Positions 7,708 through 64,000 of a DNA stretch of 64,000 bases are shown piece after piece. The notes under the pieces are model-generated. The model saw only the letters and a program-made list of their open reading frames with translations. It searched no databases and was not told the DNA's origin. The translations under genes were made by a program, and so were the position numbers. Origin of the DNA: Alphaproteobacteria bacterium (GTDB lineage Bacteria; Pseudomonadota; Alphaproteobacteria; Rickettsiales; UBA1997); assembly GCA_030835905.1 (NCBI GenBank), contig JAURQX010000005.1, positions 1,135 through 65,134 on the forward strand, in the 5' to 3' direction. Within the stretch, counting starts at the first letter, position 1; each line of letters starts with the position of its first letter.

Positions 7708-9324
7708 TTACAACTTATTCTTATATTCTAGAGCACTTTCTACATATTTTTTAAAAATAGGGTGTGCATCAAAAGGTCTGGATTTTAATTCTGGATGAAA
7801 CTGAACACCGACAAAAAATGGATGATCAGCTACTTCAATAATTTCTGGTAATTTATCATCAGGAGACATGCCTGAAAATTTTAATCCTGCACTTTCTAGC
7901 TGTGAGCGGTAATTAATATTTACTTCATAGCGATGACGGTGCCTTTCTTCAATCAACTCTTGTTGATAGATTTTTGCGATAAAGCTTCCCTGAGAAATTT
8001 TGCAAGGATAAGATCCAAGACGCATTGTTCCACCTAAATTTTCTTTATCTTTTATAATTTTACTGCCTTGTTTAGTGGTCCATTCATTCATGTTACCAAC
8101 TAAAAACTCACCGTTTTTTGATATTTCATGCGATGTAGCTTCGCTTATTCCAAGAACGTTTCTTGCATATTCAATCACTGCCATCTGCATGCCAAAGCAA
8201 ATTCCTAAATATGGAATTTTTTTAGTTCTGGCGTATTTTATCATGCTGATTTTACCTTCGGTCCCATCAACTCCAAATCCACCCGGCACTAAAATTGCAT
8301 GAATATTATCTGGCAAGTTCTGTTGGTTTTTTCTTGCATTTACCCAAATAACATTGGCTTTAATCTTGTGAGCTATAGCTGCATGATTTATTGCTTCAAG
8401 TAAAGATTTGTAAGAGTCAGGATAGCCAGTATATTTACCAACTATAGCAATATTTACTTCATCCTTAGGATTGTTAATAGCATTTCTAATTTTTAACCAC
8501 TTATCTAAATTAACTTTTTCATCAAATTTTAAGTTAAAAAATCTAAGAATCTCTCTATCCAAGCCATTTTGGTGATATATGATTGGTACTTCATAAATTG
8601 ATTTTACATTAGGAGCAGCAATTACTGAGCTTAAAGGTACAGATGTCATTAATGCAATCTTTCTAAGATGATCATCACTTATTCTCTTTTCAGCTCTGCA
8701 TAAAAGAAAATTTGGCTGAATACCGATAGATCTCAGCTCTTTAACTGAATGTTGAGTGGGTTTAGTTTTTAATTCATCAGCACACTCAATATATGGTAGC
8801 AAGGTTAAATGTAAAAATGCACACTTAGAAGAACCCATTTCATAATGAAGTTGTCTCAAGGCTTCAAAAAAAGGCAAACCCTCAATATCTCCAATAGTCC
8901 CACCAATTTCGCAGAGCATAAAGTCAACATCTTGCGATTCGTTGACAATAAATTCCTTGATAAGATTAGTTACATGAGGAATAACTTGTACCGTACCTCC
9001 CAAGTAATCACCCCTTCTTTCTTTAGCAAGTAAATTTGAATATATTTTGCCAGCACTAATACTGTCTGACTTTTTAGCTTCAACGCCACTAAATCTTTCA
9101 TAATGACCGAGATCAAGATCAGTTTCCGCTCCATCTTCAGTAACAAACACTTCGCCATGCTGAGTTGGGCTCATTGTTCCTGGATCTATATTAAGGTAAG
9201 GATCTAATTTTCTAAGCCTGACTTTAAAGCCACGCTCTTGAAGAAGCGATCCCAAAGCTGCAGAAGCTAAGCCTTTTCCCAAAGAAGATACAACACCACC
9301 TGTAATAAATATAAATCTAGTCAT
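7708..9324 (-). CDS. pyrG: CTP synthase
   Basis: [26 protein letters not shown]-terminus, GATase motif YLGICFGMQ, 538 aa. Confidence 0.97.
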
Positions 9325-9516
9325 TTAATTAATTTAAAAGTATTTTGATTTTTTTAAAATATCTTAATTTACTTTAATAAAAATCAAATACTAAAGTTTA
9401 GTATGCGCATAGTATGTACAAATTTTAATGTAACTAAAAATATTATTGACTATCAGAATGGTTAAATTAAAAGTAGGGGCTATTTTTAATTTATTCGTTG
9501 TTAATATTTAATTTCT

Positions 9517-19845: not shown

Positions 19846-20269
19846 CATAAAAAATACTTAGTAATTGCAATCGCTAATTTTAACTTTAGATATTTTTCTT
19901 TGGTTTGAAAGTTAGAGGAAAGTCCGGACTCCGTAAGAGAATAGTACCAGTTAAGAGCTGGCAGATTTGTTGTTTTAGCAACAAATTTAGGGCAAGTGTC
20001 ACAGAAAATATACCGCCAAATAATTTTTTGGTAAGGGTGAAAATGCGAGGTAAGAGCTCACACGCTTATATGGTAACATATATTTGGACAAACCCTGCTA
20101 GGAGCAAAACCAAATAGGAATAGTAATTTTAAAGTAACTTTTAAACAAATATCTCTCTTGTATTAGCTATTCGGGTAGGTTGCTTGAGATCGTTAGCGAT
20201 ATCGATCCTAGATGAATGATTGCTTTTAGATTTATTATCTATAAACAGAATCCGGCTTATTTTATAATG
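19846..20269 (+). ncRNA. rnpB: RNase P RNA, bacterial type A (ends approximate, +/-20 nt)
   Basis: Universal elements are present in order: GAGGAAAGTCCGG (19915 onward), ACAGAAA, GGTAAGGGTGAAA, GGTAAGAGC, AACCCTGC..GAGCAAAACCAAATAGG, GGGTAGGTTGCTTGAG, CCTAGATGAATGA, and ACAGAATCCGGCTTAT (20245-20260). P2 pairs gcaatc with gattgc. Confidence 0.92.
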
Positions 20270-20309
20270 TTATTTTGGTCAAATTTACAATAAATTTTGA
20301 CCAAAATAA
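20270..20309 (+). terminator. 17-bp stem hairpin immediately 3' of rnpB
   Basis: ttattttggtcaaattt / aaattttgaccaaaataa with one bulged T and a 5-nt loop, followed by the T-rich tgatttattttt. Confidence 0.55.
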
Positions 20310-58124: not shown

Positions 58125-59092
58125 TTTTTATTTTTCTTAAGAAATACATGATATACGCGGTGATAATGGTAATTAAATTCTGCACCAAAAATAAAAACTA
58201 AACTTATTAAATAAAAAAACATCAAAGAAACTATGATGCCGGCTAAAGATCCATAGACAAAGTTTACTTGATCAAAATATCCAAGATAAAATGCAAAAGC
58301 TTTTTGTAATATTGAATATAAAATAACGGTTAAAATTGAACCTGGTAAAGTTTGGGTTATTTTTTGTTTAGCATTTGGTAATGCAAAATATAGTAATGAT
58401 GTTGATGCAACAATTATTAAAAAAACTATTATTTTACTAAAGTAAAAAAACCAAGCTTTAAAATCTATTCCCAAAGAAAGAAATGAATCTACTTTTTGAA
58501 GTAAGTTTGGAATAATCAAAAAAGCGATAATTCCAACAACTATAGAAAAAGTTATAATAAAAAATTCTATTATACTTACAAATCTTCGCCAAATATAAGG
58601 CGGTGGAAATTCAATACGATAGGCACGATTTAATATTGTTCGGCACCCTTCAACCGAAGACGAGGCTGTCCAGATAACACCTAAAATGGCGATTGTTAAA
58701 AAACCTTGATGTGGACCTGAAATTATCTCCTTAATTCGAGGAGCAAGAGCTTGATTCATTTCTTTAGGAACTGAATTTAGAATATATTCAATGAATTTTA
58801 TTCCTTCATTCGTTGCTCCAAAAAAACCGATAATCGCTATTAAGAAAATTAAAAATGGAAATAGTGACAAAATGCTTAAAAAAGCTAAATACCCAGCATG
58901 CTCTACACCATTTTGATTAACTAAATCAGTTATCGAAGCTTTTAGTATTTTGAAAGGAAGTTTAATATAAAGCCTAAAGAAGCTACTTTTGATCATCCTG
59001 CAAAATTTTCTAATTGTAAAACTTTTATTTCTATCATCTGAATCAACCATCTTAAAATTATGAGGTTTTTTTGTTAAATAATAATCCATCAA
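58121..59092 (-). CDS. YihY/BrkB family membrane protein
   Basis: Polytopic protein with GVEHAGYLAFLSILSLFPFLIFL and a C-terminal GAEFNY, typical of the family. An alternative start at Met15 (59050) avoids overlap with the upstream gene. Confidence 0.8.
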   Translation of the reverse strand: MMDYYLTKKPHNFKMVDSDDRNKSFTIRKFCRMIKSSFFRLYIKLPFKILKASITDLVNQNGVEHAGYLAFLSILSLFPFLIFLIAIIGFFGATNEGIKFIEYILNSVPKEMNQALAPRIKEIISGPHQGFLTIAILGVIWTASSSVEGCRTILNRAYRIEFPPPYIWRRFVSIIEFFIITFSIVVGIIAFLIIPNLLQKVDSFLSLGIDFKAWFFYFSKIIVFLIIVASTSLLYFALPNAKQKITQTLPGSILTVILYSILQKAFAFYLGYFDQVNFVYGSLAGIIVSLMFFYLISLVFIFGAEFNYHYHRVYHVFLKKNKK

Positions 59093-59495
59093 TACTAAAA
59101 CCTTCTCTAGAAAATATATGTTGCGATTCTTCTCTTTTAGAACCTAAACAACCAACTATCGCATCGCACTTAAAAATAGCAGCTTGCCATTCAGCCCAAC
59201 GAATCATCATTTTACCTACACCAATGCCTCTTTTTTTGCGATCAATCATAAAATCTTCAATTTCTAACATTTTACCAAATTGAATTTTTCTAACAATCCT
59301 AACTCCAATAACCCCAATACACCTTCCATTATCAATATCTTTATCTTCGCAAACTTGCGCCATTTTATAACCTCTTTGTATCATATTTAAAACATCGTCG
59401 ATATAGCCATCTGCATTTAAATTTTCGTATATTTGTTGCAAAACATGAAATGTTTTTTCTATATCATCGCGAGTAGAAATTTCTTTTATTTGCAT
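59058..59495 (-). CDS. GNAT family N-acetyltransferase
   Basis: Acetyl-CoA-binding motif IDRKKRGIGVGKMMI. Start trimmed to Met24 of the track ORF (cat at 59493-59495). Confidence 0.75.
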   Translation of the reverse strand: MQIKEISTRDDIEKTFHVLQQIYENLNADGYIDDVLNMIQRGYKMAQVCEDKDIDNGRCIGVIGVRIVRKIQFGKMLEIEDFMIDRKKRGIGVGKMMIRWAEWQAAIFKCDAIVGCLGSKREESQHIFSREGFSIDGLLFNKKTS

Positions 59496-59591
59496 AGTTG
59501 ATTTAATCAAAATAATTAATAGATTTTTTGGCGTTTTTGCTTTTTTATAAAAAATAATTTGCAAGTCAAGAAAACCAATTCAATTAAGTTC

Positions 59592-60791
59592 ATGAAAAAA
59601 ATCAAAAAAGTTGTCCTCGCTTATTCTGGTGGCTTAGATACATCGGTTATTCTAAAATGGCTTCAAGAAAAATATGAATGTGAAGTTGTTACATTTACTG
59701 CTGATTTAGGTCAAGGTGAAGAATTAGAGCCTGCCCGCAAAAAAGCTGAAAGCTTGGGTGTCAAACAAATTTTTATTGAAGATTTGCGCGAAGAATTTGT
59801 GCGCAACTATGTTTTTCCAATGTTTCGTGCCAATACGCTTTATGAAGGCGTTTATTTGCTTGGTACTTCAATTGCTCGGCCATTGATCGCTAAAAGACAA
59901 ATTGAAATTGCTAAACAAGTTGGAGCTGATGCGGTGGCGCATGGTGCTACTGGCAAAGGTAATGATCAAGTGCGTTTTGAAATTGGCTACTATGCCAATA
60001 ATCCTGAAATTAAAATAATCGCTCCATGGCGCGAATGGGATTTAAATTCGCGCACCAAACTTATTGATTACGCTGAAAAAAACCAAATACCAGTTGCTAA
60101 AGATAAAAGAGGTGAAGCGCCCTACTCGGTTGATGCTAATTTGCTTCACACTTCAAGTGAAGGCAAAGTTTTGGAAGATCCAAGTCAAAAGGCACCAGAA
60201 TATGTTTATCAAAGAACAGTTAGTCCGCAAGAAGCGCCTGACAAAATCACTACCATTAAAATTCAATTTAAAAATGGTGATCCAATCGCAATTGATGATC
60301 AAAAAATGTCGCCGGCACAAATTTTAACCAAGCTTAATGAATTAGGTGGTAAAAATGGTATTGGACGCCTTGATCTAGTTGAAAATCGTTTTGTTGGCAT
60401 GAAATCGCGCGGCATTTATGAAACTCCGGGTGGCACTATTCTTTTAACATCGCATCGCGCAATGGAATCAATTACTTTAGACCGTGAAGCAGCGCACCTA
60501 AAAGATGAAATTATGCCACGCTATGCCAGCTTAATTTATAATGGTTTTTGGTTTTCACCTGAGCGCAAAATGTTACAAGCTTTGATCGATGAATCACAAA
60601 AAAATGTTGAAGGTGAAGTGGTTTTAGACCTTTACAAAGGAAGTGTTACGGTTGTTGGCAGATCTTCAGCTAAAAGTCTTTATTCAGTTTCGCATGTTAC
60701 TTTTGAAGAAGATTCAGTTTATGACCAAAGAGACGCACAAGGCTTTATTAAATTGAATGCTTTGCGGTTGAGGTTGAATAGGTTTAAATAA
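59592..60791 (+). CDS. argG: argininosuccinate synthase
   Basis: [15 protein letters not shown]..., 399 aa from the ATG at 59592 (the track ORF starts earlier at a TTG). Confidence 0.96.
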
Positions 60792-60835
60792 AAATTTTGC
60801 CATGAATTAACAAATCTAATTTAAAATCCACCAAA

Positions 60836-61669
60836 ATGACAAAACAAAACCAAATTAAATTATTTGAAGATCAAAAAGTTCGTACTCACTGGAATCAAGA
60901 TGAAGAACAATGGTACTTTTCAATAATTGATGTAATTGCCATTTTGACTGAAAGCGTTGAGCCAAATGCTTATTGGCGTAAATTAAAACAACGCTTAAAA
61001 ACAGAAGGAAATCAAAGTGTGACAAATTGTCACGCTTTGAAAATGATTGCACTTGATGGCAAGATGAGATTTACTGATGTCGCCACCACTCAACAACTGT
61101 TTCGCCCAATTCAATCAATCCCTTCTAAAAAAGCTGAGCCTTTTAAATTATGGCTAGCAAAAATTGCTAATGAAAGATTTGATGAAATGCAAAATCCTGA
61201 ACTTTCAATTGATCGAGCTTTACAACAATATCTAAATCTTGGATACAGCCAAAATTGGATTAACCAAAGGCTTAAAAGCATTGAAATTCGCAAAAGCCTA
61301 ACTGATGAATGGCAAAGAATTGGCTTAAAAAAAGGTCAAGAATTTGCTAACCTAACTGATATTATTACTAAAAGTTGTAGTGGCAAAACTACCAAAGAAT
61401 ACAAGATATTGAAAGGCTTAAAGAAAGAAAATTTGCGAGATAACATGACTAACACCGAGCTAATTTTGAATATGTTAGCCGAAGCTTCAACAACCGATAT
61501 CTCAAAAGCTAAAAATCCAAGAAATTTTACTGAAAGCAAAAAAATTGCCAAGCAAGGAGGAAAAATTTCTGGCAACGCTAGAAAGGAATTAGAAGCTAAA
61601 ACTGGCAAAAAAATAGTAGTTGGATTAAATGCTAAAAAACTTTTAAAAAGTAAGGATAATGAAAAATAG
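60836..61669 (+). CDS. Bro-N domain protein, DinD-like (DNA-damage-inducible protein D / phage antirepressor family)
   Basis: N-terminal KVRTHWNQDEEQWYFSIIDVIAILTES...AYWRKLKQRL...LKMIALDGKMRFTDVA...AEPFKLWLAKIANERFDE fits the Bro-N pattern. The C-terminal half (NMTNTELILNMLAEASTTDISK...AKQGGKISGNARKELEAKTGKKIV) parallels the C-terminal half of E. coli DinD. Confidence 0.8.
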   Translation: MTKQNQIKLFEDQKVRTHWNQDEEQWYFSIIDVIAILTESVEPNAYWRKLKQRLKTEGNQSVTNCHALKMIALDGKMRFTDVATTQQLFRPIQSIPSKKAEPFKLWLAKIANERFDEMQNPELSIDRALQQYLNLGYSQNWINQRLKSIEIRKSLTDEWQRIGLKKGQEFANLTDIITKSCSGKTTKEYKILKGLKKENLRDNMTNTELILNMLAEASTTDISKAKNPRNFTESKKIAKQGGKISGNARKELEAKTGKKIVVGLNAKKLLKSKDNEK

Positions 61670-63116
61670 TCAAAACCAAGAAAGTGAACTAACTAAAGAG
61701 TCAAGAGATCCTTTTGAGGCGGATTGCTTTGGCAGAGAAGAATTAGCCAAAAAACTCTTTAACATAATTAACTACAATTGTCCTTTTATTGACGATTCTT
61801 TTGTAATTAGCCTTAATGCTCCTTTTGGTCGTGGCAAAACCACTTTTATCAGAATGTTTAGTGAATTTTTGCGACAAAAAGAAGAAACTGTTATTGAGAT
61901 AAATGCTTGGGAAACTGATTTTGCCAAAGAGCCTTTAGTGCCAATATTATGCACAATTTTAGAAGAGATTGAAAAAGTTGGCAATGAAAGCTTAACAGAA
62001 AATTTGAAAAAAATTTTAAATGCGATATTTAAGGGTGGCTATGAAATAGCTAAAAATTCTGATCCAGTAACCAAAGTCGTGCTTGATGGTGCGGAAGCAA
62101 CTTTTAAAGAGATAAAAAAACAAGAAATTGATCAACAATTTTCTAGCACCAAGAAGCAGTATGAAGATCTTAAAAAAACATTAGCTGAGTTTGTTGAAAA
62201 AACTCATAAAAAAAGATTAATTATTATTGTTGATGAGCTTGATCGTTGTCGCCCGAATTATGCCATTGAGTTTTTAGAGGCTATTAAACATATTTTTGCC
62301 ATTAAAGGAGTTTTCTTTATTTTGGCAGTTAATAAACAACAGCTCGAAGTTTCAACTAAAGCTTTATTTGGTGAAGGAATTAAATTTGATAATTATTTTT
62401 TAAGATTTGTTTCTAAAGAAGTTAAGCTTGTTGAAGGAAAATTAGAGGATTATGATAAGTTTAATCGAAGCTTGTTTAAGAAATTTTTAGAAAATAAGCC
62501 AAAAGAGCAAAAACCTATTTTTAACGTAGATGTTACATATGAATTTGATTCTAGTCTGGTTAAAATATCTAACAAATTACAAGAATTAATAAATTGGAAT
62601 AGTAAATTATTTTCTAGTTTTAAATTTGAGCCAAGACAAATAGAAAGATTTTACAAAGATTTTAGTTATTTTATTTACAGAAAAAATGATTGGCCAAAAA
62701 ATCAAGATACTTCTCTATTGTGGGTTAAAGGATTATCCTTTTTACTTGTTTTAAGAATTTTAAATAATGGTCTTTTTAATCTTCTACCCAAAGATCATGA
62801 TAAATTTATTGTGGAATTGATTAAAGAATTAAAGAAATTTGGACTGTGTTTTAAAAAGACAAATTCTGAATTTTTTAAATCTAAAAGAGATTTCTGGTAT
62901 TTTGGTGGCGAAATATTGTCGTTTTTTTATTACGAAAAAAATCATCAGTGCAATGATAAGATTGTTGAAGTTTTTCAAGAAAATTTTTTTGGAGAAGATA
63001 ATGAAGAAACTCTAGAAGAGGCAAAGAGTATTATTAAACCGAGAGGATTGGATGAAATTACTATGCGCAATGTATTTAAAAGAATCCAAGAGCTCAAAAC
63101 CATCGAAGACAATTAA
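61659..63116 (+). CDS. KAP family P-loop NTPase (soluble variant, no inserted TM helices seen)
   Basis: Walker A LNAPFGRGKTTF, family-typical INAWETDFAKEPLVPIL, Walker B LIIIVDELDRCRPNYAIEFLE. AAGGA lies 3 nt upstream of the ATG. The start overlaps the upstream gene by 11 nt. Confidence 0.85.
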   Translation: MKNSQNQESELTKESRDPFEADCFGREELAKKLFNIINYNCPFIDDSFVISLNAPFGRGKTTFIRMFSEFLRQKEETVIEINAWETDFAKEPLVPILCTILEEIEKVGNESLTENLKKILNAIFKGGYEIAKNSDPVTKVVLDGAEATFKEIKKQEIDQQFSSTKKQYEDLKKTLAEFVEKTHKKRLIIIVDELDRCRPNYAIEFLEAIKHIFAIKGVFFILAVNKQQLEVSTKALFGEGIKFDNYFLRFVSKEVKLVEGKLEDYDKFNRSLFKKFLENKPKEQKPIFNVDVTYEFDSSLVKISNKLQELINWNSKLFSSFKFEPRQIERFYKDFSYFIYRKNDWPKNQDTSLLWVKGLSFLLVLRILNNGLFNLLPKDHDKFIVELIKELKKFGLCFKKTNSEFFKSKRDFWYFGGEILSFFYYEKNHQCNDKIVEVFQENFFGEDNEETLEEAKSIIKPRGLDEITMRNVFKRIQELKTIEDN

Positions 63117-63139
63117 TATTAACAACAAAACTAATAATC

Positions 63140-64000
63140 ATGAACTTTAATCGACTTAAAGACTGCGTAGTTACTAATAAAAATGTGTTGGTGCGTGTTG
63201 ATATTAATGTGCCGATCAAAGATGGCAAAATTACTGACGACACCAGAATTAGAGCGGTGATCCCTACCCTTGAATATTTAGCAAAAAATAAGGCAAAAGT
63301 TATTGTGATTTCGCATTTTGGTCGGCCAAAAGGACAAAAAGTTGCGTCAATGTCTTTAGTGCAAACTATTGAGCGCATTGCCGAATTACTACCAAATATT
63401 AAGGTTAATTTTGTTGATGATTGCATTGGTGACAAGGTTAAAGAAGAAGTTAGCAAAACCAATTATGGTGAGGTTATTTTGTTAGAAAATTTGCGATTTT
63501 ACACTCAAGAAGAAAAAAACGACGCTGAATTTTCAAGGCAATTAGCATCACTTGCTAATCTTTATGTTAATGATGCTTTTTCTTGCTCGCACCGCGCCCA
63601 TGCATCAATTGTTGGTGTGGCTCAAATTCTTAAAAGTGTGGCTGGGTTTCAAATGGAAAAGGAATTAGATAATCTTAATAATTTGCTACAAAATTCTAAA
63701 AGGCCAATGATGGCGGTGATTGGTGGTGCTAAAATTTCTAGTAAAATTGATTTAGTTAAATCACTTAGCAAAAAATGTGATGCTATTTTTATTGCTGGCG
63801 CCATGGCTAATACCTTCTTTTATGCGATGGGTAATAATGTTGGTAAATCACTTTTTGAAGCCGATTTTAAAGAGGTGGCTTTAAATGCTATTGAGGAAGC
63901 CAAGAAAAATAATTGCCAAATTATTTTGCCAAAAGATGTGGTAGTGTGTAAAAAATTAGAAAATAACACAACTTCACAAAATATTGATTTAAGTGAGGTG
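63140..64000 (+). CDS. pgk: phosphoglycerate kinase (5' 287 codons; runs off the window end)
   Basis: My translation from the ATG at 63140 gives MNFNRLKDCVVTNKNVLVRVDINVPIKDGKITDDTRIRAVIPTLEYLAKNKAKVIVISHFGRPKG. The frame stays open to base 64000. It is absent from the track because it has no stop in the window. Confidence 0.95.
   Translation, partial: MNFNRLKDCVVTNKNVLVRVDINVPIKDGKITDDTRIRAVIPTLEYLAKNKAKVIVISHFGRPKGQKVASMSLVQTIERIAELLPNIKVNFVDDCIGDKVKEEVSKTNYGEVILLENLRFYTQEEKNDAEFSRQLASLANLYVNDAFSCSHRAHASIVGVAQILKSVAGFQMEKELDNLNNLLQNSKRPMMAVIGGAKISSKIDLVKSLSKKCDAIFIAGAMANTFFYAMGNNVGKSLFEADFKEVALNAIEEAKKNNCQIILPKDVVVCKKLENNTTSQNIDLSEV

Follow-up and report, generated by a model that had tools for sequence, protein, structure and literature searches.

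The F plasmid protein PifA, which acts in the exclusion of phage T7, shares a KAP or KAP-like P-loop core with QatA of the QatABCD system and with RdrA of the RADAR system. Single-protein KAP P-loop nucleoside triphosphatases (NTPases) from Enterococcus and gut bacteria protect Enterococcus faecalis, and both the Walker B motif and the C-terminal region are needed for this protection (PLoS Biol 2026, PMC13552941). A further group, the PDC systems, comprises untested candidates obtained by 'guilt-by-embedding' in BREX, DISARM and type I restriction–modification (RM) loci (Payne et al. 2024, bioRxiv 10.1101/2024.01.29.577857). The locus discussed here belongs to a 64,000-nucleotide (nt) stretch of contig JAURQX010000005.1 from an alphaproteobacterium of the Rickettsiales (hereafter the window, meaning the whole stretch that was analysed), in which the interval between argG and pgk is occupied by two overlapping open reading frames (ORFs). 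Both are read from the + strand of the sequence: the first, gene 1 (277 amino acids, aa), encodes a Bro-N protein, and the second, gene 2 (485 aa), encodes a soluble KAP NTPase. The explanation that we hold to be probable is that they form a small accessory islet at the variable site after argG, made of two independently mobile single-gene candidates for phage defence, and not of one system.

The catalogue status of the two genes bears directly on this explanation. When the PADLOC-DB v2 profiles were searched with both proteins, gene 1 matched PDC-S13 (PDLC04920) with an E-value of 1.5e-131, its aa 1-275 corresponding to profile positions 1-275 of 286, and its Bro-N part also matched PDC-S04. 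Gene 2 matched PDC-S20 (PDLC04959; E 1.7e-70) from aa 8 to 442, which correspond to profile positions 5-416 of 464. Neither protein matched any of the multi-gene (PDC-M) models. Likewise, gene 1 matched phrog_15286 (E 1.3e-117) and gene 2 matched phrog_8614, both PHROG families of unknown function. A sequence-only reading of this DNA had put forward the pair as a coupled sensor–effector immune module of undescribed composition, and this novelty is lost, because PADLOC lists the two genes as separate single-gene candidates. A full-text literature search by the names PDC-S13 and PDC-S20 found no paper.

The resemblance to the catalogued families is close for both proteins. Gene 1 is a full-length match to PDC-S13 and phrog_15286, whose members occur singly in many contexts; it differs in overlapping a KAP gene, a pairing absent from all the other loci compared, and the function of its family has candidate status only. 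Gene 2 is a near full-length match to PDC-S20, being a soluble KAP NTPase that stands alone and falls in the size range of about 450-490 aa, like the relatives that are embedded between HsdM/HsdS and HsdR. The difference is that gene 2 lies outside any RM system, between argG and pgk in a compact genome, and that PDC-S20 is itself a candidate whose 'system' status is provisional.

Further support was provided by the neighbourhoods of the homologues. Family hidden Markov models (HMMs) were compared with all stop-to-stop ORFs of the collected loci, in both directions. The KAP set comprised 166 loci (2.65 Mb), namely 80 genome loci, 6 loci of the closest homologues and 80 viral-contig loci, and the gene 1 set comprised 164 (1.85 Mb), namely 80 from metagenomes, 80 from viral contigs and 4 of the closest homologues. 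A gene 1 or Bro-N match was present in 0 of the 166 KAP loci and a KAP match in 0 of the 164 gene 1 loci; earlier passes had given 0/86 KAP loci (tblastn with gene 1) and 0/160 gene 1 loci (KAP HMM). Apart from the window, only its own copies (L001 and L002) have the two genes together. The two genes do not make up a conserved two-gene system, and the co-localisation foreseen for their homologues did not appear. Both outcomes, the lack of co-localisation and the prior cataloguing of the families, are among those that the sequence-only reading had itself named as speaking against its proposal.

The same conclusion can be approached from the site itself. Three genomes (the window, L252 and the sister lineage L003-L006) have in common the upstream order rho, purQ, purS, a brkB-like gene, an acetyltransferase gene and argG, and they differ in what follows. 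In L252, whose argG is 91% identical to that of the window, the argG–pgk site is empty, consisting of a 250-nt gap (9192-9441) in which no remnants of gene 1 or of the KAP gene were found. In L003-L006, whose argG is 90% identical, the KAP gene is present alone, and its start (ATG) and the stop of argG overlap by 8 nt (L003 8001-8008). In the window, which supplied the argG query (100%), both gene 1 and the KAP gene are present. The pgk genes are 77-78% identical between the window and both L003 and L252. Because occupancy differs among these relatives, the site is variable and both genes are accessory. Judged by their host-like base composition, neither is a very recent import from a GC-rich donor. 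The earlier suggestion of an insertion between core genes is thereby borne out, since the site is empty or holds only the KAP gene in relatives with the same flanks, and the argG–pgk synteny comparison that had been called for showed that the pair is not universal at this position.

The KAP protein of L003-L006 is a same-site orthologue of gene 2 with 48% identity, colinear over its full length and ending in the same C-terminal ELKTIED motif. The identity is unevenly distributed, being 75-77% in the P-loop core and 38-39% in the insert and the C-terminal region. More distant relatives carry other cargo after argG, such as RhuM/Fic with YCII and an ATP-dependent DNA ligase, a low-molecular-weight phosphatase, or nothing, and no integrase, tRNA or repeats are present at these post-argG sites. 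Further post-argG stretches compared were L260 7213-9905 and L250 9313-9783. The position behaves like a hotspot at which compact genomes take up single genes. A history compatible with these states would place the KAP gene at argG|pgk first, with fast divergence since (48%, against 90% for argG and 78% for pgk), and the insertion of gene 1 between argG and the KAP gene later.

Outside this site, each gene belongs to its own widespread family and is found alone, including in type I RM loci, in type I CRISPR-Cas loci and on viral or prophage contigs. The family of gene 1 is very large: clustering at 50% identity leaves 867 representatives that match at E<=1e-30. Out of 8,000 scored, the listed non-self homologues number 119; these are 74-81% identical to gene 1 and come from Proteobacteria and Bacteroidota, including Flavobacterium. 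A relative is encoded on 166 viral-contig stretches, with 54-65% identity to the viral-contig copies. Gene 1 relatives were found within type I RM and type I-C-like Cas loci, and the recurrent families among 116 immediate neighbours of metagenomic copies are HsdM/HsdS/HsdR, Cas3/Cas5d, an Eco57I-type methylase, RhuM and RadC. In a related compact genome (L256 7230-8816), a homologue with 80% identity and an Abi_C-domain protein sit between trpB and trpA, splitting a classic operon pair, and in another relative a copy with 81% identity is alone between prfB and nrdR.

The KAP relatives show a comparable embedding. In 10 of 79 loci the KAP gene is preceded by HsdM and HsdS, and HsdR, MmeI and DarT/DarG are also neighbours. 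Clustering of the neighbours of the 79 relatives, aimed at any other conserved partner of the KAP gene, returned only type I RM subunits as recurrent. Stretch L027 (2390-8364; also L028) contains the string HsdM, HsdS, KAP relative, DarT and DarG(macro), a compact defence island that displays the embedding pattern behind PDC-S20. A different setting is seen in L007 (1-2104, 8001-9380). There, the third-closest KAP homologue (45% identity) has icd on one side and a split SDF transporter gene on the other, and genes for a phage terminase and head-tail connector are found at a distance of about 6 kb; this context, unlike the argG site, suggests movement of the KAP gene between sites.

An association with defence loci is seen for both families, which have relatives within type I RM and Cas3 loci and others adjoining DarTG, MmeI and Abi_C. 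The link to defence proposed from the sequence alone is retained to this extent, and it is the coupled sensor–effector module that falls away. Taken with the lack of co-occurrence, these contexts are in keeping with two single-gene elements, each independent of the other, that have a tendency to lodge in defence loci and in mobile elements.

Gene 2 is a KAP NTPase. Pfam KAP_NTPase (PF07693) covers aa 26-338 with 125.1 bits against a cut-off of 20 (E 4.4e-36), and the motifs GRGKTT (Walker A, 57-62), AWETDF (83-88) and DELDRCRP (192-199, with Walker B DELDR at 192-196) fall on invariant or near-invariant columns of a 32-sequence alignment, where G57, G59, K60 and D192-E193-L194-D195-R196 are invariant. 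No transmembrane segment was found in gene 2 by a Kyte-Doolittle scan: the highest 19-residue mean, 1.73, is reached at aa 206-224, a helix and strand of the ATPase-fold core with a predicted local distance difference test (pLDDT) score above 90, and there is no hydrophobic segment outside this core. The earlier assignment of a KAP NTPase free of membrane helices is confirmed, and inserted transmembrane helices, typical of many KAP members, are not obligatory in the family; gene 2 and its relatives of about 450-490 aa lack them. The AlphaFold2 model of gene 2 (pLDDT 81, predicted template-modelling score 0.81) consists of a P-loop core, a polar helical insert at about aa 93-185 and an all-helical C-terminal region at about aa 340-485. 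Its nearest folds in the PDB are RdrA of RADAR (TMq up to 0.47), HslU and ORC/Cdc6.

Against this background, the described KAP systems are only partial matches. The PADLOC model of PifA matches the ATPase part of gene 2 alone (E 1.6e-17, aa 20-230 on positions 15-227 of 720) and not its full length, and that of QatA likewise reaches only the ATPase part (E 4e-15), with the NCBIfam QatA model giving 57.4 bits against a cut-off of 600. In contrast to QatABCD, no qatBCD genes are nearby, the neighbours being argG, gene 1 and pgk. The likeness to RADAR is at the level of the RdrA fold (TMq <=0.47), and no rdrB deaminase gene is adjacent. Gene 2 is about half the size of PifA, QatA and RdrA. The Enterococcus proteins are similar in joining a KAP NTPase domain to a C-terminal region of unknown fold and in acting alone, although, compared by description, the two transmembrane helices of EF_KAP are lacking in gene 2, whose C-terminal region is also shorter (about 145 aa, against 322 aa in EF_KAP; PMC13552941).

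Gene 2 may be an oligomeric switch that is driven by NTP, in the manner of AAA+/STAND-like proteins, its fold being nearest to that of the ring-forming RdrA. The conserved P-loop core would drive the variable insert and the C-terminal region, which would recognise a phage component and block infection. Since no enzymatic effector domain is recognisable in gene 2, the protein may act by sequestration, by remodelling or through a host partner.

For gene 1, Pfam recovered, at aa 14-109 (38.5 bits, cut-off 25.6; E 1.9e-9), the Bro-N domain already assigned by the sequence-only reading, and the C-terminal half of the protein matches no Pfam family. E. coli DinD is an SOS-induced protein and a reported inhibitor of RecA filaments. 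With 274 aa and a Bro-N domain at aa 10-105, DinD has the same length and architecture as gene 1. A colinear BLASTP alignment joins aa 122-221 of gene 1 to aa 117-215 of DinD (28% identity, E 0.002), and when hhalign is given a profile (A4) built from diverse members of the family, the E-value is 3e-5 across 103 columns; the C-terminal half is helical, and the motif KGLKK..(L)xDxM..TEL is common to both proteins. The colinearity with DinD that had been noticed in the sequence-only reading is, by these alignments, real but weak. The NCBIfam equivalog NF008573 gives gene 1 15.2 bits against a cut-off of 242 (E 0.01, aa 135-227), and DinD and gene 1 differ also in that no LexA-box-like site precedes gene 1. 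The connection to the SOS response drawn from dinD finds no support here, as neither GTTC-N7-GTTC nor CTGT-N8-ACAG occurs with at most one mismatch at 59,000-64,000, although the host motif may differ from these consensuses. Judged by sequence, gene 1 is a distant relative of DinD and not its orthologue.

A second comparison involves Deinococcus radiodurans DdrC, a sensor of DNA nicks and double-strand breaks. It is a domain-swapped dimer composed of a winged helix after a beta-hairpin and of a four-helix bundle, and by binding nicks in pairs, or double-strand ends, it brings about the compaction or circularisation of DNA; according to the DdrC literature it lacks homologues outside Deinococcus (PMC9303277, PMC11347143). 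The NCBIfam DdrC model matches gene 1 at aa 139-224 with E 1e-4, far under the curated cut-off. When the family profile (A4) was compared with PDB sequences, the best match was again DdrC (E 0.0026), within residues 114-222, which form the four-helix-bundle domain. In a Foldseek search of the gene 1 model against 350,542 PDB chains, the top four hits were full-length DdrC chains (best E 0.047, probability 0.92, about 208-236 alignment columns); the matches in the C-terminal half are only suggestive, because the AlphaFold2 model, from a shallow alignment with 74-81% identity, is poor past aa 110, with pLDDT below 50. The region concerned is gene 1 aa 135-255, at window 61240-61600, and the PDB entries are 7UDI, 8U0G and 7QVB.

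The architectures also run in parallel, in that DdrC has an N-terminal winged helix preceded by a beta-hairpin and then a helical bundle, and gene 1 has Bro-N and then a helical half. On the other side, all the gene 1 scores are weak and DdrC is regarded in the literature as Deinococcus-specific, so that the link is a proposal. Homology among gene 1, DinD and DdrC would seem to have a roughly even chance of being correct, each line of sequence and model comparison being weak and the weight coming from their agreement. The broader idea that the PDC-S13 family, E. coli DinD and Deinococcus DdrC make up one superfamily of Bro-N plus helical-bundle proteins binding DNA breaks or nicks is offered tentatively, at a little under an even chance, and is independent of the gene pairing.

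If it is of the DinD/DdrC type, gene 1 would be a probable dimeric DNA-binding protein that recognises DNA ends, nicks or recombination intermediates through its Bro-N domain and helical bundle. It may interfere with the processing of phage DNA, or it may manage breaks produced by neighbouring nucleases; binding of DNA ends or nicks would make sense beside HsdR and Cas3, where its relatives are found. About 100 columns of the family alignment are invariant across 32 sequences, and such extreme conservation suggests contact with a universally conserved target, for example a DNA structure, RecA or the replication machinery.

Several points weigh against two single-gene defence candidates. The literature searches gave no defence test of any PDC-S13 or PDC-S20 member. 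The conservation just described, as seen in the alignment, is unusually high for an immunity gene, and the occurrence of the gene 1 family on phage and prophage contigs means that it could be a mobile-element gene, either an anti-defence factor or a modulator of DNA metabolism. Many neighbours of its metagenomic copies are housekeeping genes. The validated KAP defence proteins carry membrane helices and gene 2 does not. As for the history of the site, on the three genomes compared a loss of gene 1 from the sister lineage is as possible as its gain. Finally, a functional coupling specific to the window lineage is compatible with the comparative data.

Some of these points lead to the reading in which only the KAP gene is defensive and gene 1 is a mobile or phage-derived factor of DNA metabolism or anti-defence. 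It could then resemble DinD in modulating recombinases of the RecA type, or it could serve in restriction alleviation or in the management of breaks, and it would hitch-hike in RM, CRISPR and prophage loci. The extreme conservation across phyla and phages favours it, together with the phrog_15286 match and the relatives on the 166 viral-contig stretches, and so does the resemblance to DinD and DdrC, which act on host DNA repair. The embedding beside the break-making nucleases HsdR and Cas3 also speaks for it; however, guilt-by-embedding fits a defence role just as well, and gene 1 also adjoins Abi_C and KAP genes in compact genomes without phage genes. On balance a non-immune gene 1 is considered unlikely.

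The two-gene system suggested by the sequence-only reading, in which a Bro-N/DinD-like protein senses phage DNA or damage and activates a translationally coupled KAP NTPase, has become improbable. It draws on the 11-nt overlap and the AAGGA upstream of the second ATG, on the association of both families with defence, and on the plausibility of joining a DNA-lesion sensor to an NTPase, given the biochemistry of DdrC. However, the partner gene is missing from all 166 KAP and all 164 gene 1 loci, an orthologous KAP gene stands alone at the same site in the sister lineage, where it overlaps argG instead, and PADLOC models both genes as single-gene candidates. Of the translational coupling claimed earlier, the overlap and the AAGGA are indeed there, but the AAGGA ends 2 nt before the gene 2 ATG, which is short for Shine-Dalgarno spacing, and overlaps are routine in this genome, occurring in 6 of the 38 same-strand neighbour pairs of the window (23 of the 38 have a gap of <=30 nt). 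The 11-nt overlap alone does not imply functional coupling of the two genes; overlaps being common in the window, and the sister-lineage KAP gene overlapping argG, no dedicated coupling between gene 1 and gene 2 is needed to account for it. The tight packing of the KAP gene against whichever gene lies upstream looks like genome compaction. The two-gene immune-system proposal is not to be carried forward.

A narrower version of the same idea is that an operon has been newly welded in the window lineage, with a DdrC/DinD-like lesion binder gating the KAP NTPase and the system caught at birth. This is slightly less probable again, and the superfamily reading of gene 1 is ranked above it.

A housekeeping locus, in which both genes would be conserved in the lineage, have cellular roles and be co-expressed with argG and pgk, is very improbable. 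The base composition is host-like (GC content 0.32 for gene 1, 0.28 for gene 2 and 0.30 for the window; 0.24 and 0.21, respectively, at third codon positions). Mobility genes and repeats are lacking, and co-transcription with argG is probable. On the other hand, a relative with 91% identity in argG has nothing at the site, gene 1 is absent from another relative, the KAP protein is only 48% identical where argG is 90%, and both families have a patchy, mobile distribution. The housekeeping locus was rejected on account of the empty and KAP-only sites in relatives and the patchy families.

A decaying remnant of a prophage or integrative element, to which the PHROG matches and viral-contig copies of both families might point, has next to no probability and was rejected, as both ORFs are intact and full length against the family profiles, they are not accompanied by further phage genes, by att-like repeats, by a tRNA or, among the first 25 Pfam families listed for the remaining window ORFs, by an integrase, and the sister-lineage KAP gene is intact and colinear.

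The features of the interval are collected in the table below. The ORF coordinates, the overlap, the two spacings and the ATG and stop positions given in the sequence-only reading all match the sequence.

Table. Features of the argG–pgk interval and its flanks, in window positions.
Feature	Position	Strand	Remarks
argG (argininosuccinate synthase)	59592..60791	+	Pfam Arginosuc_synth in the L001 gene call; stop at 60789-60791; upstream core flank of the variable site
argG–gene 1 spacer, 44 nt	60792..60835	+	No terminator-like hairpin, no promoter-like site wholly inside, no LexA-box-like motif; gene 1 starts 44 nt downstream of argG
gene 1, Bro-N (aa 14-109) plus putative DinD/DdrC-like helical C-terminal domain (~aa 135-255)	60836..61669	+	Pfam, PADLOC PDC-S13, phrog_15286
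gene 1/gene 2 junction	61652..61669	+	AAGGA 61652-61656, gene 2 ATG 61659, gene 1 stop TAG 61667-61669; 11-nt overlap
gene 2, soluble KAP-family P-loop NTPase	61659..63116	+	Pfam KAP_NTPase, PADLOC PDC-S20, phrog_8614
pgk (phosphoglycerate kinase), truncated by the window end	63140..64000	+	Pfam PGK in L001; ATG at 63140, 23 nt beyond the gene 2 stop; downstream core flank

The 44-nt spacer aligns poorly with the equivalent position in L003 and L252. No terminator-like site was found in either intergenic gap (argG–gene 1 and gene 2–pgk), and the best promoter-like sites near the gene 1 start are weak, with 9/12 matches and none higher, and span the gene 1 ATG, so that both genes are probably read through from argG. 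An ORF of 122 aa on the - strand (63097-63462), antisense to the end of gene 2 and the beginning of pgk, is in all likelihood a shadow ORF, spurious and due to the AT-rich sequence. The window as a whole is AT-rich (30% GC) and about 90% coding, and its remaining 48 ORFs are core genes, with a UvrD-like helicase as the sole defence-type match. The statement that the pair lacks an integrase, a tRNA and flanking repeats holds: the window has tRNAs at 1931 and 34649 only, no meaningful direct repeats flank the pair, and no integrase-like family is among the first 25 Pfam families listed for the remaining 48 ORFs. The gene for a bacterial class A RNase P RNA is located at 19855-20275 (226.8 bits) and is an ordinary core-genome feature.

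Read as two single-gene candidates, the locus provides a natural example of a compact genome that gathers such genes stepwise at a fixed variable site, without integrases or repeats, and the empty, one-gene and two-gene states are all preserved among relatives. It also gives independent neighbourhood support for the candidates PDC-S13 and PDC-S20. For the PDC-S13/DinD-like family, the comparison with DdrC proposes a biochemical role, namely the binding of DNA nicks or ends. If true, the superfamily would overturn the view that DdrC is restricted to Deinococcus, and it would give a mechanistic handle on a gene that is embedded in RM and CRISPR loci and in phages.

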